From Acidimicrobiia bacterium (GTDB lineage Bacteria > Actinomycetota > Acidimicrobiia > Spongiisociales > Spongiisociaceae): DNA of 21,876 nucleotides. The stretch spans positions 1 through 21,876 of the forward strand of contig JBFGLM010000068.1 of the NCBI GenBank assembly GCA_041576165.1. The letters are read 5' to 3'. Shown here piece after piece: positions 5,510 to 21,490 of the stretch (position 1 is the first letter of the stretch; every line of letters starts with the position of its first letter). The position numbers and the translations under genes are program-made. Under the pieces are notes generated by a model that ran no database searches, was not told the DNA's origin, and saw only the letters and a list, made by a program, of their open reading frames with translations.

Positions 5510-7696
5510 TTACGCTGGAACGGACTGCTCGTGCGTCTGTTGTTCGAGCCCGACGGGGGCGAAGACGAGATCCCCCACTATGGCACGGAAGTGCGTGAGG
5601 CCCCTCCCCATGTCGTACACCCTCACCGTGCTGGGAGCAGCTTTCCGGTGGAAGAAGTAGTTGTGGACGATGTGGACCTCGAGTGTGGTGGCGGAGCCGT
5701 TGGTCTTCGGCTGGGTACGACATGACCGCTGGCTCGGGCCGGTGGCGCAGGCTCCAAGGGATGGGTTGAGCACCGCGCCGACCGCCACCCCTTCCGGGTC
5801 ATCCACCGTGACCACGTAGGCGTGGCCTGGGGTGCCTGCAATCGAGAACACACTGTTGGACGGCGGTTCATTCCAGCGGACGGTCTTTTCGAAGACAACC
5901 GTTCCCGCGGCCGACACGAAGAGCTCTGCATAGCCAGCTGCGCTGAGCGCCGACATGCCCAGGGGAGTTGGTCCTGGTGGGGTCGTGTTCCAGAACTGGA
6001 CCGGTTGCCCGGCGTAGACGACTTGTTCTAGCAACCCCAATCCACTCGAATTGATGCTCAGCAGCACTCCATCTGCTTTGCGTGATGCGTTGGCGGCGAA
6101 GAACGGCGTGCCCCCCAGATCTTCGACGAAAGAGAAGACTTCGAGTTCCAGGTCAGAGGGAATCTCAGGTATGACCGCAGCCAGGCACGGCAGGAAGGCC
6201 GACCATGCCTCGTCGAGACCGAGATGCCCAGATCCACTTGCCGCAACGTTCCATTGCGGGTTGTCGTAATCATCGCTCGGGGGTGGCACGGTCGCGCTGA
6301 ACGCACCAAGCGGCACGCCCGCCGTGGCACCTACTCCCACGGATGCTCTGGCGAAGTCGACCGAGATACCCTCGACACCGAAGACACCGAAACCGAGCGC
6401 AGCGGTCGCCCCGATACGTGCTTCGGCTCCGACGCTCAGATTGCCACTCGCCGAAACGAGCGCAGGTGGTTGGACATCGGGACTCGACGACGCCGTCTGC
6501 GACGACGCGTTAGTCCAGCCTTCGCCTTCTGTGTAGCGGATGCCGTAAGTCCCGCTTGCGCCGTATGTGATGCTGGCGGCTCGCAGCGTGGCAGAGCCCT
6601 CGAGCGTGGCGGACCCTTCGACGTGGACGTTCGGGGTGACCGTGGGGTGCACGGTGAACGGGCCGATCGCCAACGGCGGCATCGCAATCTCAGGAATGTC
6701 CACGGCACACACGAATCGCCCGGTGCCCGTGCCGGTCACGTCGACAAGAGGACCAGTGATGCTCAAGTCGGTGGTGACATCGACCGCGAACTCCAACTCC
6801 TGGACGACGCCGCCGCCTACCGAGATGTGGCCGCGGGGGACAATCCGCACCGGTATGTCGGCGAGGTCGACCAACCCGACATCGACCGAGATCTCGCCCA
6901 TCACGGTGCAGTAATCGTTGAGATCGATCTCCCCCGAAATGGCGTGATCATCGAGGAAGTCGCCAACGAGGCGCGAGGCGAACTCGTCGAAGGCGTCCGC
7001 AAGACCTGCCTTCCCCAAGGTGACGATCAGCCGATCCTGCGTCGGCTCGACGTGCTCGACCTGGCCGAGGATGCCATCACAATCGGCGCTAGGCACGCCG
7101 CTGGCAACATAGCCACCTCGTTCAATTCGTTCGTTGTTTGGGTGCCGGAGCAATACGACCGCGTTGGGCCCCGGGCCGACCTCGCCGCAAGCGATCGTTC
7201 CCGGCTCCACGATGACGGTGCCCGAACCTGGGTCTGCCACCGTCACTGAAACGGCGGTGGTCACCTCACCGTAGGTCGCGGTGACTATGGCCCAGCCCAC
7301 CGACGACCCTGGGCTCACCTTGACGGTGTTCTCGTCTGGGCTCAGCTCGACAACGTCGGCCGGGTCCGCGTCGCTGACCGTCCACTCCACGACTGCGTCA
7401 GGCTCTTCGATTGAGGCCGTGAAGATTGTGGCGTCGCCTCCGGGTGTCAGAATCGCCGAAAGCGGCGTAACGGCGATCGACATTACCGGCGTGGGCGATT
7501 GGGCGGGTTCGGACAACCCTGCCGCTGGCCGTTGCGGCCCCGGCTCGAGGTTGCCGATCTCCTCCGCCGGCGACGCACAACCCGCTGCAATCAATGCGAC
7601 CAGAGTTATCGCGGCGATTGCGCGCAGCAGGCTCTCGTAGGCCCCGGTTGCGTCTTGCCGCTCGGGACCAGGGCTCGACCTATTCAAAGCGGCCAT
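5510..7696 (-). CDS. Large putative lipoprotein with an Ig-like (Big_2-like) N-terminal domain; function unknown
   Basis: RBS AGGAGG upstream of ATG; hydrophobic segment ending in lipobox IAAG-C; Pro-rich linker; SIAVTP...VEWTVSD...AIVTATYG Ig-like pattern; beta-rich body. Confidence 0.75.
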   Translation of the reverse strand: MAALNRSSPGPERQDATGAYESLLRAIAAITLVALIAAGCASPAEEIGNLEPGPQRPAAGLSEPAQSPTPVMSIAVTPLSAILTPGGDATIFTASIEEPDAVVEWTVSDADPADVVELSPDENTVKVSPGSSVGWAIVTATYGEVTTAVSVTVADPGSGTVIVEPGTIACGEVGPGPNAVVLLRHPNNERIERGGYVASGVPSADCDGILGQVEHVEPTQDRLIVTLGKAGLADAFDEFASRLVGDFLDDHAISGEIDLNDYCTVMGEISVDVGLVDLADIPVRIVPRGHISVGGGVVQELEFAVDVTTDLSITGPLVDVTGTGTGRFVCAVDIPEIAMPPLAIGPFTVHPTVTPNVHVEGSATLEGSATLRAASITYGASGTYGIRYTEGEGWTNASSQTASSSPDVQPPALVSASGNLSVGAEARIGATAALGFGVFGVEGISVDFARASVGVGATAGVPLGAFSATVPPPSDDYDNPQWNVAASGSGHLGLDEAWSAFLPCLAAVIPEIPSDLELEVFSFVEDLGGTPFFAANASRKADGVLLSINSSGLGLLEQVVYAGQPVQFWNTTPPGPTPLGMSALSAAGYAELFVSAAGTVVFEKTVRWNEPPSNSVFSIAGTPGHAYVVTVDDPEGVAVGAVLNPSLGACATGPSQRSCRTQPKTNGSATTLEVHIVHNYFFHRKAAPSTVRVYDMGRGLTHFRAIVGDLVFAPVGLEQQTHEQSVPA

Positions 7697-8289
7697 CTGG
7701 GTTTCCTCCTGCTTGAGGTAGTGATGGGTGTTTGGTCGGCGTCACGGCGGCTGCCAAGTGCCGTGCGCCAGCTGGAGTCAGAAGCGCCTGTCTCCTGGCG
7801 CGGCCGTGACGCGGGAGATACGTCTACAGGGGTGGGTGTTGACCGATGGCGACCCTCCTGTGCTCGACACCCGATGCGAACCCGGTCTGACTCCCACACG
7901 AGACGTCAGGGGATGGGACAGAGGCTCTACACAGATGGGGAACGAATGGCCGAGGAGGCGAAATAGCGTCTCTCAGCAGAGGACAAGGAACAGGCGCACC
8001 CTGCCAGCGGTGGGGGTGCACTTGACGGGATCTGTGCGTCTCGCCGGTCGATTACCGGTACGGATACGCGATATATCGCGCCGCCGGAAGAAACTGTCAA
8101 GAGGGTGTTATCGCGTTTCTTGGGACCGCTGAATCGCGCCCGTAGGGCGTCAAGGGACAATCCCCGACTCTAAGGCGAAACGCTTCTCCACCAGATTCGC
8201 ATGAGGTGGTAGCCGCACTGGGCCATCACCGGTCCCTCACACCGGTTTCCCGATTTCTCAGTGTGAAAGGGCAGTCCAGCTAACGGGAA

Positions 8290-9665: not shown

Positions 9666-10970
9666 CTATCGCACGAGATCGATCGGATACTGGCTGAGCC
9701 GCTCGGCCCCGGTTGCGGTGATCAGGTATTGCTCTTCGAGCTTGATGCCTTCCCCGCCGCCACGTCGACTCACATAGGACTCCGCTGTAAGCACCATGCC
9801 GGGTTCCAGGTGACCTTCCCAGCCGTGCGCCTCGAAGTCGTGCGGCATCGGGATCTTGGGGTGCTCGTCGCACTGGCCGACCCCGTGGAACAGGACCGAG
9901 TAATGCAGGAAGTCCTCGCGCGGAGGCAGCATCGACTTCATGGCCAGGTCGCGAAAGGTGACCCCGGGAGCGAGCAGGTCCGCATTGTGCTCGATCTGGT
10001 CCCGGGAGAGGTTGTAGACGTAGTCCTGCTCTCGGGTGGGGGCGAGGTCGCCGGCGATCCAGCTACGAGAGATATCACACATCATCCCGTACGGGCCCAC
10101 CATGTCGGTGTCATAGGCGACCACGTCGCCCCGCTGGATCACGCGGCTGCTGGCCTCCTGCATCCACGGCACGGTGCGCGGTCCCGATGCCAGCAGCTGG
10201 GTCTCGATCCACTCTCCGCCTCGCTTGATGTTGCCGGCGTGGAGGTATGACCACACCTCTCGCTCGGTCATTCCGGGCTCGAGCGCGTTGTGCATCTCCT
10301 CCATGGCGGACTCGCAGGCGAATACGGCGCAACGCATCGCCTTGATCTCGTCTTCGCCCTTGATGAGTCGCGCCTCCTCCATGAGCTGCTGGCCGTTCTC
10401 GATGACCACGCCGCCGGCCTCGAGCGCCTTGTACGAGGAGTAATGCAGCTGATCGATGGCGATCCGGGGGCGGGAAGATCCCACGTGTTCCCGGAACACG
10501 TCGAGCATCTCATCGGCCCACGCGTGCGCCTTCTCCCGATATCGAGGCCCTGCCAGGTAGTAGGTGGGGGTCGTGGCGGGGCGCACCTCGTCGACCAGCG
10601 GGTTGTGGCCGGCGAGAAACTCGCAGTCGTCGAACTCCCACACGATCATCGAGCGATCCGCCCCGACCCAGGCAAACCGGGAGGCGTTGTGCATGATCCA
10701 CAGCTGCATGTTCGTGCTGTCGGATGCGTAACGAATGTTCATTGGGTCGGAGACGATGACGCCGTCGTAGCCGAACTCGTCGAGCATGGCGATGATCCGC
10801 TCGAATCGGTAGCGTCGCATCGCGGCGATATCGGGGAGCTCCAGTCCGGCGGCGGTCCACTCGGCTTCGAGCGCCGGGCCCGGTCCCAGCTCCATGTGGT
10901 GGTGCTGGCGCGCTGCGCCGACAAACGCGGCACCTTTCGCTGCAATGCTGTCGGCGATCTTGCCGGCCAT
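9666..10970 (-). CDS. dddP: M24 (Xaa-Pro peptidase fold) protein closely resembling DMSP lyase DddP
   Basis: Motifs DPMNIRYASDSTNMQLW, NIKRGGEWIETQLLASGPRT.PW, YDTDMVG...DISRSW, HGVGQCDE and IKLEEQ match DddP sequences as I recall them. Start placed at ATG 10970. Confidence 0.75.
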   Translation of the reverse strand: MAGKIADSIAAKGAAFVGAARQHHHMELGPGPALEAEWTAAGLELPDIAAMRRYRFERIIAMLDEFGYDGVIVSDPMNIRYASDSTNMQLWIMHNASRFAWVGADRSMIVWEFDDCEFLAGHNPLVDEVRPATTPTYYLAGPRYREKAHAWADEMLDVFREHVGSSRPRIAIDQLHYSSYKALEAGGVVIENGQQLMEEARLIKGEDEIKAMRCAVFACESAMEEMHNALEPGMTEREVWSYLHAGNIKRGGEWIETQLLASGPRTVPWMQEASSRVIQRGDVVAYDTDMVGPYGMMCDISRSWIAGDLAPTREQDYVYNLSRDQIEHNADLLAPGVTFRDLAMKSMLPPREDFLHYSVLFHGVGQCDEHPKIPMPHDFEAHGWEGHLEPGMVLTAESYVSRRGGGEGIKLEEQYLITATGAERLSQYPIDLVR

Positions 10971-13141: not shown

Positions 13142-13217
13142 GCGGACGTAGCTCAGCTGGTAGAGCGCAACCTTGCCAAGGTTGAGGTCGCCGGTTCGAT
13201 CCCGGTCGTCCGCTCCA
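13142..13217 (+). tRNA. tRNA-Gly(GCC)
   Basis: Cloverleaf with acceptor GCGGACG/CGTCCGC, anticodon arm CAACC-TTGCCAA-GGTTG, GTTCGATCC T-loop and encoded CCA. A TAAGCT -10 lies at 13126-13131. Confidence 0.98.
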
Positions 13218-13218
13218 T

Positions 13219-13244
13219 AGGGCGGTCAGGCTGACCGCCCTTTT
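13219..13244 (+). terminator. Terminator-like hairpin plus TTTT between tRNA-Gly and tRNA-Cys
   Basis: AGGGCGGTCA-GGC-TGACCGCCCT followed by TTT. Confidence 0.55.
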
Positions 13245-13246
13245 CT

Positions 13247-13320
13247 GGCGACGTGGCCGAGTGGTTAGGCAAGGGTCTGCAAAACCCTCTACCCGGGTTC
13301 GATTCCCGGCGTCGCCTCCA
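13247..13320 (+). tRNA. tRNA-Cys(GCA)
   Basis: Acceptor GGCGACG/CGTCGCC; anticodon arm AGGGT-CTGCAAA-ACCCT; encoded CCA. Confidence 0.98.
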
Positions 13321-13338
13321 GCGTAAGATGCCCCTCAC

Positions 13339-13410
13339 GGGCGCTTAGCTCAGTGGAAGAGCGCTTCCTTGACGCGGAAGAGGTCGGCAGTTCGATCCTG
13401 CCAGCGCCCA
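13339..13410 (+). tRNA. tRNA-Val(GAC), CCA not encoded
   Basis: Acceptor GGGCGCT/AGCGCCC; anticodon arm CTTCC-TTGACGC-GGAAG; T-arm GGCAG-TTCGATC-CTGCC. Confidence 0.97.
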
Positions 13411-13705
13411 CTTTCTGAGTGTTGTGATTGGGGTTGTACGTGTGTTGTCGGGAGTGTCCCGGTTGTGGTGGTTTGGATGCGAGGCTTTTTGGGGGGCTGG
13501 CGTGGTGGGGTGGGGTGTTGGCTGATGGTGGCGCCGTGCGGTGGCGCGGATAGGGTTCGATCCCAGTAGCGCCCACTTTCTGAGCGTTGTGTGTGCCGCC
13601 GTACGTGGGTTGTCGGGGGGTGTCCCGGTTGTGGTGGTTTTTTGGGGGGCTGGCGTGGTGGGGTGGGGTGTTGCCTGATGGTGGCGCCGTGCGGTGCTTG
13701 GTTCG
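13390..13705 (+). repeat. Two-copy G/T-rich tandem repeat (165-bp first period) beginning with the tRNA-Val 3' end
   Basis: Unit 1 starts GTTCGATCC at 13390 and unit 2 at 13555. Both share AGCGCCCACTTTCTGAG...TGTCCCGGTTGTGGTGGTTT...GGGGGGCTGGCGTGGTGGGGTGGGGTGTTG.CTGATGGTGGCGCCGTGCGGTG. A further GTTCG begins at 13701. Confidence 0.93.
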
Positions 13706-13757: not shown

Positions 13758-15200
13758 GTGGATCAAGATTCGAGAAGTGCTGCGCCGCGTCCGCTACGGG
13801 CCGCGTTCTTGTCGGCCGTCTTCCCGGGTGCCGGCCAGCTGTACGTGGGCGCTCGCCGCCGGGGCTGGTGGATGCTCGCCATCGACGGCTCATTGATCGC
13901 AATCTTGCTGCTCTACCTGCTGCGCGGCGAGCTGGCCGTGGCCAAGGACTGGGTACGGCCCGGCGCGCTGGCGGTCATGATGATGATCAATCTGGCCCTA
14001 TTCGGTTTTCGAGTAGTGGCTTCCAGAGACGCTTACCTCTTGGCCCGCGGGAGAGCGGAGCCGCACCAGGGCTTAGCCTTCCTGGGCGGTCTCGGGATTG
14101 CGGTGGTGTTGCTGACCCCGCATGCCGTTTTCGGCTATTACAGCGCAGTGCAGTACGAGTTGATCACGACGGTGTTCGAAGCAGAAGATGTCGCCGCCCC
14201 GACCGTCCCGGCCCCGGTCGACCCGTCCCCCACGGCGTCTCCGCCCGGGGCATCCTCGGCTCCGTCGACGACGGTTGTAGGGACGACGGCGGCGTCGGAG
14301 CCGGCGATCTGGGATGGGCTGGACCGGCTCAACGTCTTGCTGCTCGGCGGAGATGCCGGGGTCGGGAGAACCGGCATCCGCACCGATACGATGATCGTCG
14401 TCAGCGTCGACCCGGAAACCGGTAACACCGCGATGTTCGGGATTCCGCGCAACTTCGTGCAGGTCCCGTTGCCGCCAGGGCACGGCGTTTGGGACTGCAA
14501 TTGCTACCCGAGGTTGCTCAACGATCTGTATATCGAGGGGACCCAGCGGCCGGAAGCGTTTCCCGGACCGGGCGAGCCGGGAGTCAACGCCATCAAAGGT
14601 GGGATAAGTCAGTTGCTGGGGATACCCATCCACTACTACGCCCTCGTGACGCTCGATGCCTTCGTCGGCATCGTCGATGCGCTGGGGGGTGTCGAGATCG
14701 ATGTCCAGTTCCGCATAGTGGACGAGATCTATCCCCATGAAGACGGAATCACGATCGAGTCGATCGTGATCGAGCCCGGTGTGCAAACCCTCGATGGTCA
14801 CCTGGCGCTCGCCTATGCCCGGATTCGCCGCCACGCCGACGACTATGCGCGTATGAACCGGCAGCGGTGTGTCCTCGAGGCGCTTGTTGAGCAATCGAAC
14901 CCAGCCGAGCTGGTAATCGCCTATCCGCGCATTGCGTCCGTCTTGGAAGACACGCTGCAGACGGACATCCCAATCTCGCGGCTGCCCGACTTCATAGACC
15001 TGCTGCCGAAGATCGACACCGACCGGATCACCACGCTCCGATTCATCCCACCAACCTATGTGGCCGGCCTCGACGCCCGCGGCAGAGACATTCCCGCCGT
15101 CAAGCGGATCCGCCGCGACGTCCAGGTCGCCATCACCCTTTCACCGGAGGAAGCGATCGCGACCCTCGGCGTCGAGACGCTCGAGGAGACATGCGCTTGA
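13758..15200 (+). CDS. LCP (LytR-CpsA-Psr) family cell-wall glycopolymer transferase with N-terminal TM helices
   Basis: Motifs LNVLLLGGD, RTDTMIVVSVD, GIPRN, FVGIVDALGGV and ALAYARIR...DDYARMNRQRCV. TACGAT lies 6 nt before the GTG, suggesting a leaderless transcript. Confidence 0.95.
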   Translation: MDQDSRSAAPRPLRAAFLSAVFPGAGQLYVGARRRGWWMLAIDGSLIAILLLYLLRGELAVAKDWVRPGALAVMMMINLALFGFRVVASRDAYLLARGRAEPHQGLAFLGGLGIAVVLLTPHAVFGYYSAVQYELITTVFEAEDVAAPTVPAPVDPSPTASPPGASSAPSTTVVGTTAASEPAIWDGLDRLNVLLLGGDAGVGRTGIRTDTMIVVSVDPETGNTAMFGIPRNFVQVPLPPGHGVWDCNCYPRLLNDLYIEGTQRPEAFPGPGEPGVNAIKGGISQLLGIPIHYYALVTLDAFVGIVDALGGVEIDVQFRIVDEIYPHEDGITIESIVIEPGVQTLDGHLALAYARIRRHADDYARMNRQRCVLEALVEQSNPAELVIAYPRIASVLEDTLQTDIPISRLPDFIDLLPKIDTDRITTLRFIPPTYVAGLDARGRDIPAVKRIRRDVQVAITLSPEEAIATLGVETLEETCA

Positions 15201-15396
15201 GAGCTGGCTGCGCGGCTCGCCGTTGACATACAGCACGGGCGCGCCGAGGCGGTTGACGCGATGGGATGGATTCTGCCAACCATCGGACGCTGCGTTTGCC
15301 ACATGGCAGGGGGCGGCGGGCCGTTGGCCTCTTTCGCCGGCACCATCGGCTGTGGCATCAGTGGGGTGAGATGTGATCTCAGGTCGGGAGGTGAGC

Positions 15397-15882
15397 GTGG
15401 ATTCTGGAGTGCGGCCGGTTCCAACGGGCGCCGGTGTCGGATTCTCCCGGGTGGAGACCTCCATCCTGACCAACGGCGTGACCTGGTACATGCGGTCGCG
15501 CCTCGCCGTGGACGACCGACTAATGCGTGTCGCGACACCGCGCACCGTCCTCGGATTCTTACCGATCGGGACGAAGAACTTCGAAGTCGACCTGAATGAG
15601 GTGCGAGGCGCGAGCGTGGGGAGCCGGCTCTACCCGGAGCGGCTGGTCGTGGCGATCGGGCTTGCCCTGCTGGCGGTGCTCGGCGACTTCTCCACGGTGA
15701 CGACGATCCTGCTGGGTGTCGCCACGCTGGCGATGCTCCTGCTGAGCTTCATCGCCGTGCTGCGCATCGAGGCGAAGCCGGAGCGCCCCTTCATAGTGCC
15801 AGTCTGTCTGGCCCACATCCCCCGAGCGCGCCGGGTTGTCGCTGAGATCGAGGAAAGGTCCGCAGCAGCTATCACGAAGTGA
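15397..15882 (+). CDS. Hypothetical membrane protein (two TM helices flanked by beta-rich segments), first gene of a putative operon
   Basis: GGGAGG RBS before GTG 15397 (alternative start 15373); stop is 6 nt before the next ATG. Confidence 0.7.
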   Translation: MDSGVRPVPTGAGVGFSRVETSILTNGVTWYMRSRLAVDDRLMRVATPRTVLGFLPIGTKNFEVDLNEVRGASVGSRLYPERLVVAIGLALLAVLGDFSTVTTILLGVATLAMLLLSFIAVLRIEAKPERPFIVPVCLAHIPRARRVVAEIEERSAAAITK

Positions 15883-15888
15883 CGCGGA

Positions 15889-16524
15889 ATGATCGACGAA
15901 CTGGAGCTGACGGTCCGGATTCTGGGGGCACTTGGGTTACTCACCGTGTGGATCGTCTCTGGATCGGAGGCGGTCCGCAGTCGCGACCGACCGGTCGGTC
16001 GTCGGATCGGGCTGGCGAAGCGACGAGGGGCCCTTGCCGCCTATCTACTGGCGGCGATCCCATATTTCACGGTGTGGATCCTGCTGTGGCGGCCCCTACC
16101 AATCGAACCGCCGCAATGGGCCCGGGTGCTCGCCCTCATCGTCGGTTTCTGCCTCGGCCTCGCCGGCTTGATCGTCTACTTGTGGGGGCGGGTCGCGCTC
16201 GGCGCCATGTACAACGTCAGCTCCACCCTGGGCACCGAGCTATACGCCGACCACCGCCTCGTCACCAGCGGACCCTTCCGCTACGTGCGCCATCCCATGT
16301 ACCTCGGCATTGCGCTGGCCGCGCTTGGGGCGCTGGCGGTCTATCGCAACTGGGCCATGGTCTTCGCAGTTGCCGTCCTTCCCGCCTTCGCCTTGAAGGC
16401 CCGCCACGAAGAGCGCTTATTGGCTGCTGAGTTCGGCGCCGAATGGCAGGCCTACGCAGACCAAGTTCCCGCATGGTGGCCGCGCCGTATCCGCGTAGGT
16501 CATCAGCGGTTGCTCGTCGAGTGA
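15889..16524 (+). CDS. Isoprenylcysteine carboxyl methyltransferase (ICMT/Ste14/PEMT) family membrane methyltransferase
   Basis: HRLVTSGPFRYVRHPMYLG and EERLLAAEFGAEWQAY...VPAWWP signature motifs; multiple TM helices. Confidence 0.9.
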   Translation: MIDELELTVRILGALGLLTVWIVSGSEAVRSRDRPVGRRIGLAKRRGALAAYLLAAIPYFTVWILLWRPLPIEPPQWARVLALIVGFCLGLAGLIVYLWGRVALGAMYNVSSTLGTELYADHRLVTSGPFRYVRHPMYLGIALAALGALAVYRNWAMVFAVAVLPAFALKARHEERLLAAEFGAEWQAYADQVPAWWPRRIRVGHQRLLVE

Positions 16525-16534
16525 GGAGATTGAA

Positions 16535-16654
16535 ATGACCGAGCCACAGGAGCCTCGTGGATCTCGTCCCTGGTTGAACACATTCTTGATTGTCTTAGCA
16601 GTAATCATCATCGGAGTTGGAGTCTGTTTCGCCGTGTTCGCTGGCGGCGGCTGA
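16535..16654 (+). CDS. 39-aa hydrophobic single-Cys peptide absent from the ORF track: MTEPQEPRGSRPWLNTFLIVLAVIIIGVGVCFAVFAGGG; putative precursor peptide
   Basis: Translated by hand. RBS GAGGAG overlaps the upstream TGA; the peptide's TGA overlaps the lgt-like ATG (TGATG). Layout is signal-peptide-like: polar/basic N-region, hydrophobic helix, Gly-Val-Cys. Confidence 0.85.
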   Translation: MTEPQEPRGSRPWLNTFLIVLAVIIIGVGVCFAVFAGGG

Positions 16655-17469
16655 TGTTCCCGGACCTCGCACGATTCGGCGACGTGGCGATCGGTACGCA
16701 CGACGTCTTCGTCGTGCTCGGTGTGATCGTCGCCGTCATTGTGTTCCGCAACGAGAACCGCCGCCGACGGCTCCGCGACCCCCGCCTGTGGACCATTGCG
16801 GCCGGCTCCCTCCTGACCGGAGCCGTGTTCGCCAAGCTGAGCACCGGGTGGCGCTACTTGGCTGAAGACACCGATCCCAGCCTGCTGGGTCTTTGGGTGA
16901 ACGGTGGCAAGAGTCTGCTGGGTGGCCTGGCGGGGGCCTACCTCGGTGCGCTGGTGACCAAGCGTCTCGTCGGATATCCGTATCGAACGGGAGACTCGTT
17001 TGCCCCGGCGGTGGCATTAGGCATCGCCGTCGGTCGGGTCGGCTGTTTCTTGACGGAGCCGATCGGCACCCCCACCTCGCTGCCTTGGGGGATCACCGTA
17101 TCGCCGGAGGTCGGCGCCCGCATACCCAGCTGTCCGCAATGTGCTGCAGGCGTGCCGCTCCATCCGTCGTTCATGTATGAAATCATTGCCCTGCTCGGGC
17201 TGTATGCGCTCCTGCGCTGGCTACGACCGAGGATCGACGTGCCCGGGGAGCTGTTCAAGGTCTTCCTCCTCGGGTACGGCACCCTCCGCTTCTGGGTCGA
17301 GTTCGTGCGCGGCAGCGAGCACTTCGCCCTCGGCCTCAGCGGATCGCAGATCTTCCTACTGCTGACCATGCCGGTCCTCTACGCCTACTTCGTCAGACAG
17401 CTTGCCCGCGGGGCCTACGGCCCCGTGGCCCGCCGAGCCCAACCAGTGTCGCTGGGGAGGATCCCATGA
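16654..17469 (+). CDS. Divergent prolipoprotein diacylglyceryl transferase (Lgt) family paralog
   Basis: GGKSLLGGLAG, GIAVGRVGCF, TSLPWGI, LHPSFMYE and YGTLRFWVEFVR correspond to Lgt motifs GGMSxHGG, GRxGNF, PW, HPxQLYE and YxxxRFxxEFxR. Confidence 0.9.
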   Translation: MFPDLARFGDVAIGTHDVFVVLGVIVAVIVFRNENRRRRLRDPRLWTIAAGSLLTGAVFAKLSTGWRYLAEDTDPSLLGLWVNGGKSLLGGLAGAYLGALVTKRLVGYPYRTGDSFAPAVALGIAVGRVGCFLTEPIGTPTSLPWGITVSPEVGARIPSCPQCAAGVPLHPSFMYEIIALLGLYALLRWLRPRIDVPGELFKVFLLGYGTLRFWVEFVRGSEHFALGLSGSQIFLLLTMPVLYAYFVRQLARGAYGPVARRAQPVSLGRIP

Positions 17470-19025
17470 CGTCGCCTACCAAGTTCGACCGCATCCGAAA
17501 ACCTGTCGTCGCGTATTGCCCCACGTGTCATGTCGCCGACACGGCGGGGTCGCTCGCACAGACCCGGCAACTACCGGGGTGGCTTGCCGAGGCCGGCGGT
17601 GCGGTGTGGCTGAGTCGGGAGTGTCCCTTCCATGGACCGATCATCACGCTTTACGAGGAGAACGCTGAGCTCCTCGACTATCTCGAGCAGTGGACCGCCC
17701 CCACCAAGCCACCCACCCCCGACGCACCGGAGAACGCCTCTCCGATTCCGGGCGCCTACCTCCACGGCCTCGGGGCCCGCCAGATCCAGCACACTTGCAT
17801 CCTGCTCGAAGACATCACCGAGCGTTGCAACCTGAACTGCCCGACTTGTTATGCCGGCTCTTCCCCGCTGCTGACCGGCGTCGCCCCCGTTAGCGAGGTG
17901 CTCGCCAACGTGGATCGCCGCCTCGAGCTGGAGGGGGGACGCCTCGACGTGTTGATGATCAGCGGCGGCGAACCGACGCTCCACCCCGAGCTGTTCTCGC
18001 TCCTCGAGGAGCTCATCGCTCGCGACATCGTTCGCATCATCCTCAACACCAACGGTGTGCTGGTGGCCCGCGACGATGCTCTGCTCGATTTCCTCACCCG
18101 CCACCGCAATCGGCTCGAGATCTACTTGCAGTTCGACGGTTTCGAGAAGGCCACCTACCAATACCACCGTGGAGCCGATCTGCGTAGCTTGAAACAGCGC
18201 GCCGTAGCCCGCCTCTCGGCGGCTGGTGTTTTCACGACGCTCACGATGACCGCCGCCCGCGGCGTCAACGACCACGAGATCGGTGCCGTGGTGCGCTTCG
18301 CCCTCGATACCCCGTTCATCGGCGGCGTGGCCATTCAGCCGGTGTTCGGATCCGGACGCCACGAGCGAATCGATCCTCACGATCGACTCACCAACACTGG
18401 GGTGCTGCGCCGCCTGGGCCCGCAGACCAACGGCATGGTGTCGGCCGAGGACCTGATCGCCTTGCCCTGCTCCCACCCGCATTGCGCCAGCGTCGGATAC
18501 ATGGTGCAGAACGACGAGGGTGACTGGACCAGCATCGTCCGCCTCATTGGCCACGATCGCCTCCTCGAACACCTCGGCCTGGTGAGCAACTGCATCGTGC
18601 AACCCGAGCTGGACGCCGACCTGAGGCTCCTGGTGAAGGAATCGCTGCACGGGCTCTTCAGCGAGCGTTCTTCCCTGACGCATCCCAAGATCAGCGATCT
18701 GTTCGACGTTGTGTTCCGCCGTTGCGACATCGGCCTCACGACGCTGTTGCGTTTGGCGGGGCGGGCAGTGCGCGACCCCAACGCCCTGCGCAAGCTGGTG
18801 GCTACCCGGGTCAAGCGGATCACGATCAAGCCCTTCATGGACATCAACACGATGATCGAAGAACGCCTGCTGCAGTGTTGCGTCCACGTCGGCACCGTAG
18901 GAGAGCGCCACCAGTGTGTTCCCTTCTGCGCCGCTCAGGCGTGGCCGGCGCTGGGGAGGATGAAGCTGGCGGAGGCGGCCCGGGAGCGCGTGTCGGTCAC
19001 CGGGGCGTTGGCTCCCTTGGCCTGA
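17466..19025 (+). CDS. Radical SAM enzyme of the Tes/GDGT-MAS (MJ0619, tetraether synthase)-like family
   Basis: N-terminal rubredoxin-like CPTC...CPFHG; CxxxCxxC motif CNLNCPTC; SGGEPT, NTNG, IYLQFDG, GVNDHEIG, QPV; C-terminal SHPHC...PFMD...CCVH...PFC. Start overlaps the lgt-like stop (ATGA). Confidence 0.9.
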   Translation: MTSPTKFDRIRKPVVAYCPTCHVADTAGSLAQTRQLPGWLAEAGGAVWLSRECPFHGPIITLYEENAELLDYLEQWTAPTKPPTPDAPENASPIPGAYLHGLGARQIQHTCILLEDITERCNLNCPTCYAGSSPLLTGVAPVSEVLANVDRRLELEGGRLDVLMISGGEPTLHPELFSLLEELIARDIVRIILNTNGVLVARDDALLDFLTRHRNRLEIYLQFDGFEKATYQYHRGADLRSLKQRAVARLSAAGVFTTLTMTAARGVNDHEIGAVVRFALDTPFIGGVAIQPVFGSGRHERIDPHDRLTNTGVLRRLGPQTNGMVSAEDLIALPCSHPHCASVGYMVQNDEGDWTSIVRLIGHDRLLEHLGLVSNCIVQPELDADLRLLVKESLHGLFSERSSLTHPKISDLFDVVFRRCDIGLTTLLRLAGRAVRDPNALRKLVATRVKRITIKPFMDINTMIEERLLQCCVHVGTVGERHQCVPFCAAQAWPALGRMKLAEAARERVSVTGALAPLA

Positions 19026-19070
19026 GGGGTTCCTGCGTTTCCGGCACCGGTGGGCCGCATGCGGGTGGTG

Positions 19071-20090
19071 CTATCTCTTGGGCCTCTGGTCCTTCTCATC
19101 GCGCAGGACTCGACCCATCAGCTCGAACACGGCCGTGCGGGGGTCCTTGTCCTCGTAGAGGATCTGGTAGATCTGCTCGGTGATGGGCATCTCCACGCCT
19201 TCGGCCGCGGCCAGTGCCCGGGCCGCCTGGGTCGTCCGTACCCCCTCGGCGACGGTCTGCGTCTCGCCGAGGATGTCGGCGAGCTTGCGTCCCTTGCCGA
19301 TCTCGATGCCGACCGCGCGGTTGCGGGACAGACCTCCGGTGCAGGTGAGTATCAGGTCGCCCATCCCCGACAACCCGGCAAAGGTGAACGGGTCACCGCC
19401 GCGGGCAACTCCCAAGCGAGTGATCTCGGCGAGGCCGCGGGTGATCAGCGCAGCCGTCGAGTTGTGGCCGAAACCGAGGCCGGCACAGATGCCGGCGGCC
19501 ACGGCGATGACGTTCTTCAGCGCGCCCCCCAGCTCTACCGCCACGACGTCATCCGAGGAGTAGACCCGGAAGGCGTTCGTCGAGAACAGGTCACGCACCA
19601 GGCGGGCGTTGTGGGCTGATCGGCTGGCCGCCACCACAGCCGTCGGATGACCGGCCGCCATTTCTTTGGCGAAGGATGGCCCTGACATGGCTACCGGAGC
19701 CAGCAGGCCCTCGGCAACTTCGGCGAGGATCTCGGTGGGGGTCTGCAGAGTATTCACCTCGATGCCCTTGCTGATGGACACCACGACGGCGCGCTGCAGA
19801 GCTGCGTCGTGCCCGGCGAAGACGCTCCGCACGTACTGCGTGGGCACGGCGGAGACCACGATGTCGGCGGTCTCCAGACACGCTTTGAGGTCGCCGGTCA
19901 CCTCGAGAGTGGCCGGAAGCGCCACTCCCGGAAGGAAGATGGGGTTCTCGCGGCCGGCGGCGATTGCGTCCACGACTTCCGGCTCGCGCGCCCACAGCGT
20001 GGTTGGCACGCCCAATTCGGCGAGATGTTTGGCGAGCGCCGTGCCCCACGCCCCGGCTCCCACCACAACCGCAGCGATGTCGTCTGTCAT
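19071..20090 (-). CDS. gpsA: NAD(P)H-dependent glycerol-3-phosphate dehydrogenase
   Basis: Motifs GAGAWGTALA, SKGIE, SGPSFAKE, ELGGALKNVIA, GLSGMGDLILTC, SRNR and AEGV. Start placed at ATG 20090. Confidence 0.97.
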   Translation of the reverse strand: MTDDIAAVVVGAGAWGTALAKHLAELGVPTTLWAREPEVVDAIAAGRENPIFLPGVALPATLEVTGDLKACLETADIVVSAVPTQYVRSVFAGHDAALQRAVVVSISKGIEVNTLQTPTEILAEVAEGLLAPVAMSGPSFAKEMAAGHPTAVVAASRSAHNARLVRDLFSTNAFRVYSSDDVVAVELGGALKNVIAVAAGICAGLGFGHNSTAALITRGLAEITRLGVARGGDPFTFAGLSGMGDLILTCTGGLSRNRAVGIEIGKGRKLADILGETQTVAEGVRTTQAARALAAAEGVEMPITEQIYQILYEDKDPRTAVFELMGRVLRDEKDQRPKR

Positions 20091-20233
20091 GGCCGGATTG
20101 TCGCGGATCGACAACCGCAGCGCGGCCGCTGCAGACTGGTGACGTTGGTGACCCCGAGGACGCACGGCCCGATGGAGGCCTCCCAACCGATCCGACTCGT
20201 AAGGTTGTGAGTACCGGCCGGAAGGAGGCGCCG

Positions 20234-20786: not shown

Positions 20787-20914
20787 GCCATCCTCGGCTC
20801 CACTCGGTCGCCCGTCGCGCGTAGTGGCGTCGAGCGGTGGGTGTCGAGCCGTGGCGTCGTGCGCGCCTTTGCGCCCGCGTACACTTCCGCGCTAGACGCG
20901 ATCACTGGAGAATC

Positions 20915-21490
20915 ATGGCCACGTCGCTAATGACCCCGCTCGGAACCGAAGCGCCCGATTTCGCTTTGCTCGAGCCGCTGACCGGCAACACCGTGAGCCT
21001 CGGCGACTTCGCCGACAAGGACGCGCTGCTCGTGATGTTCATCTGCAACCACTGCCCCTACGTTCAGCATGTGCGGCAGGGTCTCGCCGACTTCGGCCGC
21101 GACTACGAGGACAGCGGGCTCGCCATGGTGGCCATCTCGGCCAACGATGTCACCGAGTACCCGACCGATGGGCCCGATCACATTGCCAAGGAGGCCAAGG
21201 AGCTGGACTACCGGTTCCCATATCTATACGACGAGAGCCAAGAGGTCGCCAAAGCGTACGGAGCCGTATGCACGCCCGACTTCTTCCTGTTCGACGGCGA
21301 TCGGAAGCTCGCATACCGGGGACGCTTCGACGAGTCACGGCCCAACATGCCGGGAAAGGTCACCGGAACAGATCTGCGCGCCGCCGTCGATGCCGTCTTG
21401 GCCGGCCAACCGTTGGCTGACGATCAGCACCCGTCAATGGGGTGCTCTATCAAGTGGAAGCCAGGCAACGCCCCCGAATACGCCAGCTGA
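20915..21490 (+). CDS. Thioredoxin-fold AhpC/TSA (PRX-like) redoxin protein
   Basis: APDFAL...FICNHCPYV...AISAND...FPYLYDESQEVAKAYGAVCTPDFFLFD...YRGRFD...SMGCSIKWK; GGAG RBS before ATG 20915. Confidence 0.93.
   Translation: MATSLMTPLGTEAPDFALLEPLTGNTVSLGDFADKDALLVMFICNHCPYVQHVRQGLADFGRDYEDSGLAMVAISANDVTEYPTDGPDHIAKEAKELDYRFPYLYDESQEVAKAYGAVCTPDFFLFDGDRKLAYRGRFDESRPNMPGKVTGTDLRAAVDAVLAGQPLADDQHPSMGCSIKWKPGNAPEYAS

Follow-up and report, generated by a model that had tools for sequence, protein, structure and literature searches.

Introduction

The diacylglyceryl transferase Lgt is viewed as a housekeeping enzyme that serves one purpose only, at N-terminal lipoboxes, and the bacterial relatives of tetraether synthase (Tes), an enzyme of the radical S-adenosylmethionine (SAM) type, have so far been discussed, in the portion of PMC8941075 that deals with them, only as candidates for the synthesis of bulk membrane-spanning lipids. 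Here we describe a locus in which the two kinds of enzyme are encoded side by side. It lies in a stretch of 21,876 nucleotides from an Acidimicrobiia bacterium (positions 1 to 21,876, forward strand, of contig JBFGLM010000068.1 in assembly GCA_041576165.1; hereafter the window), where an operon encodes a paralog of Lgt, a Tes-like radical SAM enzyme, and a small membrane peptide, here termed type A, that carries a Cys residue near its C-terminus.

The gene content of this locus recurs among its relatives, the genes are linked and co-occur, and their motifs, the fold of the Lgt paralog, and its active-site residues are conserved. The reading that we put forward, which in our judgment stands about an equal chance of being right or wrong, is that the Lgt paralog would be dedicated to S-lipidation of the type A Cys and that the radical SAM enzyme would tailor the lipid tails by radical chemistry. 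The linkage ties this radical SAM clade as a whole to a protein-lipidating enzyme and so suggests a different job from the production of bulk lipids. If the reading is true, bacterial protein lipidation would be broader than now known, with an Lgt paralog serving a C-terminal Cys substrate of its own. Should the radical SAM enzyme moreover join the lipid tails, which we consider rather unlikely, the system would provide the first protein-linked bolalipid, the first C-terminal lipidation signal of the Lgt type, and, for Tes-like enzymes, the first role assigned in Actinobacteria that are aerobic and culturable.

Results

Organization of the operon

The operon comprises five genes in series on the plus strand, separated by spacers of 0-10 nt or overlapping. 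Its features, with the basis for each assignment, are as follows.

15373..15882, plus strand: 169-aa protein of no known family, with a soluble N-terminal part and two predicted transmembrane (TM) helices (open reading frame (ORF) call)
15889..16524, plus strand: ICMT/PEMT-family membrane methyltransferase, 211 aa (Pfam PEMT and ICMT above gathering thresholds)
16523..16534, plus strand: ribosome-binding site GAGGAG of the peptide gene, overlapping the methyltransferase stop codon (sequence)
16535..16654, plus strand: 39-aa type A membrane peptide with a charged N-terminal part, one TM helix, G29-V-C31, and an 8-aa uncharged tail (ORF and sequence)
16654..17469, plus strand: Lgt paralog, 271 aa (Pfam LGT, 2.5e-32)
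17466..19025, plus strand: radical SAM enzyme, 519 aa, with an HMPTM-type zinc ribbon (Pfam Radical_SAM, 7.3e-19; Zn_ribbon_HMPTM, 1.5e-07)

A preliminary description of this DNA had reported four chained genes at 15889-19025, and both the ORFs and the sequence bear this out: the methyltransferase stop TGA (16522-16524) leads into GGAG ahead of the peptide ATG at 16535, the peptide stop and the lgt start overlap as TGATG (16652-16656), and the lgt stop and the radical SAM start overlap as ATGA (17466-17469). Those four genes stand, but the inventory left out the 169-aa gene, the type B gene found in 70/80 related loci, and a second system in the same genome, all described below. The 169-aa gene, whose true start may lie farther downstream, ends 6 nt before the methyltransferase start and is a fifth co-directional member of the same conserved block. 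A promoter and terminator scan of positions 15000-19400 returned 0 promoter-like sites and 5 weak terminator-like sites, 4 of them intragenic. A search for sequencing runs that contain this DNA listed DNA metagenome runs from 4 studies and no RNA run.

Linkage of the Lgt paralog to the radical SAM gene

Relatives of the radical SAM enzyme were sought in one genome per prokaryotic species, which gave 123, and the loci of the best 80 (L004-L083) were used, with adjacency of the Lgt paralog scored by tblastn. These loci are mostly from Actinomycetota (the easily grown Microbacterium, Agromyces, Leucobacter, Arthrobacter, and Janibacter, together with Ornithinimicrobium, Hamadaea, and metagenome-assembled genomes (MAGs) of Pseudonocardiaceae, Micromonosporaceae, and Acidimicrobiaceae), and they also include one Oscillochloris MAG and one Gemmatimonadaceae MAG. 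The Lgt paralog adjoins the radical SAM gene in 79 of the best 80 loci, and at the only unpaired locus (L029) the sequence stops 31 nt past the radical SAM match. With R denoting the radical SAM gene, L the Lgt paralog, and A and B the type A and type B genes, nine gene orders were found across the 80 loci: R-B-L-A (56), A-L-R (5), L-A-R-B (5), L-A-R (4), A-L-R-B (3), R-B-L (3), L-R-B-A (2), L-R-B (1), and R alone (1). Because nine orders occur, the linkage must have survived rearrangements.

The association was also approached from the Lgt side by scanning metagenome contigs with the paralog alignment, and a radical SAM gene was present in 61 of the 80 loci obtained, including all 15 of those with at least 2200 nt on both flanks. 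Most of the 19 loci lacking the gene were short or cut on one side.

Co-occurrence was measured in 401 genomes drawn evenly from the phylum, the window's own among them. A close radical SAM homolog (at least 54% identity) was encoded in 7 of these genomes, with the paralog adjacent at all of their loci, and the paralog profile reached at least 266 bits in exactly the same 7; the next tier, at 140-151 bits, was the sole housekeeping Lgt of another family. Thirteen further loci of this sample (L101-L113) encode radical SAM proteins that are 26-34% identical by tblastn, with no Lgt within 1.5 kb; one of them, L103, comes from the unpublished genome G125. Four of these distant proteins were scanned and scored 284-331 bits against the Tes and TrsS models, above the window enzyme and still below the cut-offs.

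Five other carrier genomes were tested, and each possesses a single canonical Lgt, at 212-226 bits, together with a single paralog, at 90-99 bits. The genome of the window has three Lgt matches, one of which belongs to a second full system on contig C1 (positions 114358-117076, minus strand; L002, L114) in which an Lgt paralog is followed by a type A protein with the ending ..IGTCVALIVASLSGA and then by a radical SAM enzyme 60% identical to that of the window; contamination of the bin is 7.5%, so that the two systems may stem from different organisms.

The radical SAM clade is common in metagenomes, with 4734 proteins at E <= 1e-20 among 8000 candidates scored, and its members carry only the source names 'radical SAM protein', 'uncharacterized...', or an old HMPTM name. 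Since the type A and type B proteins, the paralog clade, and the radical SAM clade have no specific Pfam or NCBIfam model, annotation hides the system. Crude ORF clustering of the 80 loci was used to look for families beyond the radical SAM, Lgt paralog, and type A proteins; the widest real family covered 13/80 loci, and no protease, exporter, or RiPP (ribosomally made, post-translationally modified peptide) recognition element was conserved. A 26-locus ORF cluster was rejected as a gene family because it consisted of an antisense ORF over the operon.

The type A Cys protein

The preliminary description had predicted that lgt-radical SAM pairs would be accompanied by a small TM ORF with a conserved G-x-C, and such a partner was in fact found: a membrane protein that closes with an uncharged hydrophobic TM stretch, then G-x-C and a short tail, is encoded on the same strand beside the pair in 75 of the 79 paralog-paired loci (the tail comprises 5-20 residues in the selected type A set). 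At two of the other loci (L026 and L058), where the type A gene was not found, the contigs end just past lgt. Within the cluster zones, the type A pattern was matched by 76 of 2171 ORFs on the same strand, compared with 2 of 6321 in the remainder of these loci, an enrichment of more than 100-fold over background ORFs. When a family was instead assembled by all-vs-all BLAST of crude gene calls, with the motif left unused, the C-terminal G-x-C was present in 34/34 members, and a hidden Markov model (HMM) built from this family matched 62 proteins at 60 loci, every one of which carries G-x-C.

Across five whole genomes, the C-terminal type A profile matched exactly one place per genome, at most ~2.5 kb from the Lgt paralog, in 5/5 cases, which indicates that type A is a partner dedicated to the system and encoded beside it, and not a sorting signal of general use. 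Of the 54874 ORFs in the genome of the window, 14 fit the pattern, one of which is the window peptide. Another of the ORFs that fit the pattern, 268 aa long and ending ..LLTGLVTVILFAIAIGQCSTG, lies far from both systems (contig C28, positions 10106-10912, minus strand); it might encode an additional substrate or fit the pattern by chance.

The window peptide, with 39 aa, represents the shortest form of type A. Other short forms, of 35-49 aa, are found in L004, L005, L009, and L095, and the type A proteins of Microbacteriaceae have 100-230 aa, a Pro-rich N-terminus, and three TM helices. Some Microbacterium loci encode 2-3 tandem copies with divergent N-terminal parts. The label 'lipopeptide/RiPP' proposed in the preliminary description suits this family poorly: a peptide of 35-49 aa is limited to a few lineages, the partners elsewhere are mostly multi-TM proteins of 100-230 aa, and the hallmarks of a RiPP cluster (a leader/core precursor and a dedicated protease or exporter) are not conserved across these loci. 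The core of that description, lipidation of the Cys, gains from the recurrence of the linkage and of the Cys partner, and it is this label and the analogy to CAAX processing that are weakened.

The small ORF of the window appears to be a real gene. Its ribosome-binding site, ATG, and TGATG overlap are kept in the relatives L004 and L005, and the differences between the window and L004 within the ORF number 11, 2, and 19 at codon positions 1, 2, and 3, giving 17 synonymous and 9 non-synonymous codon changes. This distribution over codon positions is the one expected of a frame that is translated and subject to purifying selection.

Around the Cys, the type A proteins share the motif [ILFV]-G-[PVA]-C-[VILF]-[AG]-[LM]. 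Position -2 relative to the Cys is Gly in 76/76 proteins, as the selection dictates, and position -1 is Pro in 45, Val in 16, Ala in 7, and another residue in 8. The Cys follows the last Lys or Arg by 20-21 residues in 62 of the 76 proteins, and the tail after the Cys is uncharged in 71 of them. By the positive-inside rule, this spacing would place the Cys where the last TM helix reaches the outer face, which is also where, going by the pertinent part of PMC4728403, the lipobox Cys of a lipoprotein precursor encounters the active site of Lgt. A predicted complex from alignments of the Lgt paralog and the peptide scored 0.00 in two runs, for which controls were not folded, and was counted neither for nor against binding.

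The Lgt paralog

The window paralog scored 112.6 bits against Pfam LGT (gathering threshold 24.9) and fell under all five NCBIfam lgt cut-offs, with 67.4 versus 118.9 for TIGR00544. Its AF2 model (pLDDT 86.3, pTM 0.83) has the seven-TM Lgt fold, and in a Foldseek search the E. coli Lgt structure 5AZB was the sole PDB match at E <= 0.001 (4.5e-7, TM score 0.65). The equivalents of E. coli R143, E151, H196, E202, Y235, R239, E243, and R246 are invariant in 81/81 paralogs, and that of Y201 is retained in 80/81. The structural account of E. coli Lgt in PMC4728403, as far as it covers these points, describes the roles of R143 and R239, an active site that faces outward to the periplasm, and a hydrogen bond from Y26 to the sn-2 ester of phosphatidylglycerol.

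All 81 paralogs have His at the Y26 position and Cys at the N146 position, where three canonical actinobacterial Lgts have Tyr and Asn, respectively. The H103 position is Leu in the paralog, and the canonical actinobacterial Lgts likewise lack H103. We considered the change of N146 to Cys as a sign of new chemistry and rejected it, because the same Cys is found in the sole Lgt of another actinobacterial family. The members of that small-genome family (L123-L127; genomes G040, G055, G070, G167, and G284) share the stretch GRLGCFxNGCCYG with Cys at the N146 position in 5/5 cases, and hence the position of N146, a residue assigned to the hydrogen-bond network of Lgt, is not universally occupied by Asn.

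The radical SAM enzyme

The best PDB match of the window enzyme is GDGT-MAS (7TOL; E 7.7e-37, residues 34-490), and PqqE matched at only 7.6e-05 over the core region. Neither of the two NCBIfam family cut-offs was reached: the scores were 159.7 for Tes (NF045702, cut-off 450) and 203.8 for TrsS (NF045646, cut-off 490), the latter being the highest-scoring model, and the core gave weak NCBIfam matches to sactipeptide and SPASM maturases. The preliminary description had called the enzyme Tes-like, which holds insofar as it aligns with GDGT-MAS; the enzyme nonetheless falls below the Tes cut-off, lacks the N-terminal auxiliary ligands, and scores higher to TrsS. Judged by its sequence, it is a separate, divergent branch of the Tes/TrsS/HMPTM superfamily, and Tes-like action on lipid tails is suggested by overall similarity rather than by family membership.

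Cys and His residues were mapped in 77 sequences, five loci with stops in their tblastn ranges having been left out. The rubredoxin-like CX2C...CX2H residues (C18, C21, C53, H56) and the SAM-cluster CX3CX2C residues (C121, C125, C128) are each conserved in 76-77 of the 77 clade members. The C-terminal C471, C472, H474, C484, and C488 are invariant, align with the C-terminus of GDGT-MAS, and are candidate cluster ligands. H109, C111, C335, H337, H339, C340, and C420 are also invariant and are specific to the clade. In GDGT-MAS, following the sections of PMC9433317 on its cofactors and their roles, the N-terminal auxiliary [4Fe-4S] cluster is bound by C73, C77, and C80 plus a His, and the C-terminal cluster region carries a C-S intermediate.

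Two other ideas about this enzyme were dropped. An in-frame TGA in the radical SAM match of genome G019 was examined as a selenocysteine codon and proved to be an ordinary stop codon, and a role in defense was discarded since PADLOC gave only generic viperin-core matches for the enzyme.

Accessory genes

The methyltransferase scored 42.8 bits (7.6e-11) against Pfam PEMT and 42.7 (7.8e-11) against ICMT, above the respective thresholds of 25 and 24, and reached 67 bits against the NCBIfam model isopcys_mtase, below its cut-off of 160. It was found in 5 of 86 other genome loci and was absent from 81. When HMMs were applied to the 166 loci used overall for these counts, the methyltransferase was detected in 25, type B in 99, and both in 2. 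The methyltransferase is an accessory gene limited to one sublineage. CAAX-like tailoring by this enzyme, as proposed in the preliminary description, would be at most a feature of that sublineage, and no CAAX-type or other tail-removing protease was found in the loci.

The 169-aa protein gave no Pfam, NCBIfam, or PADLOC match and belongs in the Atlas only to clusters named 'hypothetical protein'. Homologs occupy the same position in L004-L006, in 9 metagenome loci, and in L099, and the order 169-aa gene, methyltransferase, short gap or peptide, lgt, radical SAM recurs in L004-L006 and 9 metagenome contigs. L095 has the methyltransferase, a 35-aa peptide, lgt, and the radical SAM gene, and its sequence starts inside the methyltransferase gene.

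Type B, a protein of ~100-150 aa, was found by HMM directly after the radical SAM gene in 70 of the 80 loci. Its consensus is ..FDPLRLC-[hydrophobic, G-P in middle]-GYARARRAGLLRSKCKLGDTR-[TM], with two conserved Cys residues and a strongly basic loop. No Pfam or NCBIfam family was assigned to it, the Atlas held only unnamed actinobacterial clusters, and a genome-wide search found it neither in the window nor in the rest of the window's genome (best E 0.47).

In the Gemmatimonadaceae MAG (L012, positions 5764-7794) and in metagenome protein P0123, the radical SAM gene reads through in frame into type B. These read-throughs were judged too weak as evidence of physical contact because both contigs show signs of indel errors, L012 having a frameshift near the 5' end of the radical SAM gene; two other apparent fusions, P0125 and P0132, were alternate-frame artifacts.

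Discussion

A proposed mechanism

We infer a dedicated lipidation module, which is the simplest reading that makes use of every conserved element. The type A protein, in the window the 39-aa peptide, would insert with its N-terminus inside and its C-terminus outside, so that the last TM helix carries the invariant Cys at its outer end, some 20 residues after the last Lys or Arg, as in a lipoprotein signal peptide. The Lgt paralog, having kept the Lgt fold and the phosphatidylglycerol-binding and catalytic arginines, would then move a diacylglyceryl group onto the Cys thiol. Cleavage by signal peptidase II would probably not follow, because the residue before the Cys is mostly Pro or the bulky Val, not Gly, Ala, or Ser, and a membrane protein bearing its lipid close to the C-terminus would be the outcome. 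Before or after the transfer, the radical SAM enzyme, with its rubredoxin-like site, SAM cluster, and C-terminal cluster region, would perform radical chemistry on the hydrocarbon tails. The sublineage of the window adds the ICMT/PEMT-type methyltransferase and the 169-aa membrane protein, and most other lineages have type B beside the radical SAM gene; either type B, or the methyltransferase with the 169-aa protein, may act as a membrane partner or tailoring enzyme. As for the product, we consider it rather unlikely that the radical SAM enzyme couples one acyl tail, at its end, with the other one or with a lipid from the opposite leaflet, which would set the protein on a covalent macrocyclic or membrane-spanning anchor. 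Because several of the carrier genera are easily grown, the hypothesis is directly testable; culturable carriers include Microbacterium lacticum DSM 20427, Microbacterium paludicola JCM 14308, Agromyces neolithicus, and Janibacter hoylei.

Several observations weigh against this proposal. L185, a metagenome locus with the paralog at 1438-2277, has no radical SAM gene within 1.4 kb upstream or 3.8 kb downstream and is the sole such paralog locus seen with room to judge; similarly, L012 and L031 lack a type A gene despite having room for one. Most of the 80 loci are from Microbacteriaceae, so that their counts are not independent events, and the rows of alignments A1 and A3 were chosen by the motif, which partly builds in the invariance that G29 and C31 show there. 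The type A sequences do not conform to the canonical lipobox. With His in place of Y26 the donor lipid of the paralog may differ from that of Lgt, and this substitution together with Leu for H103 may indicate a different donor or acceptor. The stretch of the radical SAM enzyme that aligns with the N-terminal ligands of GDGT-MAS contains no Cys, and the whole interval from residue 56 to residue 111 is free of any conserved Cys in between; given the missing ligands and the clade's own Cys/His set, its chemistry may differ from that of Tes. Finally, the active site of Lgt faces outward and the radical SAM enzyme is presumably cytoplasmic, needing SAM and a reductant, so that the latter would have to gain access to the tails from inside or else modify the donor lipid beforehand.

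Alternative explanations

The same genes might instead serve bulk lipids, an alternative that we regard as unlikely yet worth keeping in view. The Lgt paralog and the radical SAM enzyme would build or remodel a free membrane lipid, such as a diacylglycerol derivative that is macrocyclic or spans the membrane, and the G-x-C and two-Cys proteins would be non-substrate subunits that act as scaffold, anchor, or redox or metal ligand. Such a pathway would agree with the action of Tes, GDGT-MAS, and Mss on free lipids (those parts of PMC9433317 and PMC13159169 that concern these enzymes) and with the proposal, in the relevant portion of PMC8941075, that bacterial Tes homologs make membrane-spanning lipids. 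Type B also points this way, with its two conserved Cys residues by a strongly basic loop, its place right after the radical SAM gene in 70/80 loci, and the rare read-throughs from radical SAM into type B, although both of these lie on the error-prone contigs noted above. What speaks for a protein substrate is that Lgt-family enzymes are known only for the transfer of lipid to a protein thiol and that the only invariant residues of type A are Gly-x-Cys, located where an Lgt would reach; moreover, the hypervariable N-terminal parts and the 1-3 tandem copies of type A are typical of substrates and not of stoichiometric subunits.

Two other schemes retain the type A protein as a substrate but assign the chemistry differently. 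The radical SAM enzyme could modify the small protein itself, forming a thioether or C-C link near the Cys, with the Lgt paralog acting on the product or in export, immunity, or anchoring. We find this improbable. Many radical SAM enzymes with auxiliary clusters are peptide maturases, and the weak sactipeptide and SPASM matches, the clade's own conserved Cys/His set, and the tight translational coupling of peptide, lgt, and radical SAM genes are all compatible with it; yet the similarity to the lipid enzyme GDGT-MAS is full length (E 7.7e-37) compared with the core-only match to PqqE (7.6e-05), the crude ORF clustering of the 80 loci revealed no conserved RiPP recognition element, protease, or exporter nearby, and the Cys is predicted to lie outside, away from a cytoplasmic enzyme. 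Least probable of all, and to our minds a long shot, is that type A functions as a covalent lipid carrier, onto which the paralog would load diacylglycerol for the radical SAM enzyme to couple the tails before the product is released as free lipid. This idea, a matter of pure inference, would account for a dedicated, single-copy, co-located Cys protein next to a lipid-type radical SAM enzyme, but thioethers of the S-glyceryl kind are chemically stable, and the loci share no conserved enzyme that could release the lipid.

Neighboring genes

The operon is flanked in the window by the following genes.

13758-15200, upstream of the operon: LCP-family glycopolymer transferase with an N-terminal TM region
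19071-20186, minus strand, downstream of the operon: gpsA (glycerol-3-phosphate dehydrogenase)
20837-21490, downstream of the operon: AhpC/TSA-type redoxin

Farther upstream, genes for tRNA-Gly, tRNA-Cys, and tRNA-Val at 13142-13411 are followed by a tandem duplication of ~155-165 nt (13390-13543 and 13555-13696), the second copy of which opens by repeating the tRNA-Val 3' end. This tRNA-Val-linked duplication may be the remnant of an integration site. None of the LCP-family, tRNA, gpsA, and redoxin genes is kept beside the system in the related loci.

Comparison with known systems

A literature search, which did not take in the source paper of TrsS or supplementary files, either of which might bear on the matter, returned no paper that links an Lgt paralog with a Tes-like radical SAM enzyme. 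The one joint mention of Lgt and radical SAM, in PMC8939145, concerns ordinary lipoproteins, and the word 'lipoprotein' never occurs in a 2026 review of lipid-modifying radical SAM enzymes.

The bacterial lipoprotein pathway offers one half of the comparison. The paralog belongs to the same enzyme family as E. coli Lgt (5AZB), shares its fold, and keeps the central-cavity arginines and the acidic residues, and, as in lipoprotein precursors, the putative acceptor Cys of type A ends a hydrophobic helix on its outer side that follows basic residues. The type A sequence [ILFV]-G-[PVA]-C nevertheless differs from the canonical lipobox [LVI][ASTVI][GAS]C, as this is given in the pertinent part of PMC12462473. 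Unlike E. coli Lgt, the paralog is a dedicated second copy that stands beside its own presumed substrate and is paired with a radical SAM gene, and, unlike lipoproteins, type A has only 5-20 residues between its Cys and its end, can contain three TM helices, and carries no mature domain.

Tes and GDGT-MAS (MJ0619; 7TOL/7TOM) supply the other half. The radical SAM enzyme aligns with them over nearly its full length and shares the CX2C...CX2H, CX3CX2C, and C-terminal cluster motifs, but it has no Cys at the positions of C73, C77, and C80 and possesses the additional C111, C335, H337, H339, C340, and C420. In contrast to those of Tes, its hosts are largely aerobic Actinomycetota with ester lipids, and its gene is linked to Lgt and Cys proteins. 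TrsS, a radical SAM (seleno)protein, is the top NCBIfam model for the enzyme, below its cut-off, and no in-frame TGA occurs here.

The locus resembles CAAX processing in that the Cys stands close to the C-terminus, with a short tail after it, and the operon includes an ICMT-family methyltransferase; it departs from CAAX processing in that the methyltransferase is present in only 25/166 loci, the tail comprises 5-20 residues rather than 3, and the enzyme is of the Lgt type and not a prenyltransferase. Bacteria and archaea also possess C-terminal sorting systems, such as sortase/LPXTG, exosortase/PEP-CTERM, and archaeosortase/PGF-CTERM. As in those systems, a short C-terminal signature linked to a TM helix is the sole conserved part of the protein and is presumed to be read by a dedicated membrane enzyme; here, however, the TM helix precedes the motif, the reverse of their order, there is one substrate per genome, and the enzyme family is unrelated. 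Taken together, these likenesses and differences suggest that the system joins two known kinds of chemistry, protein lipidation of the Lgt type and radical lipid chemistry of the Tes type, in a combination that is undescribed in the literature we found.

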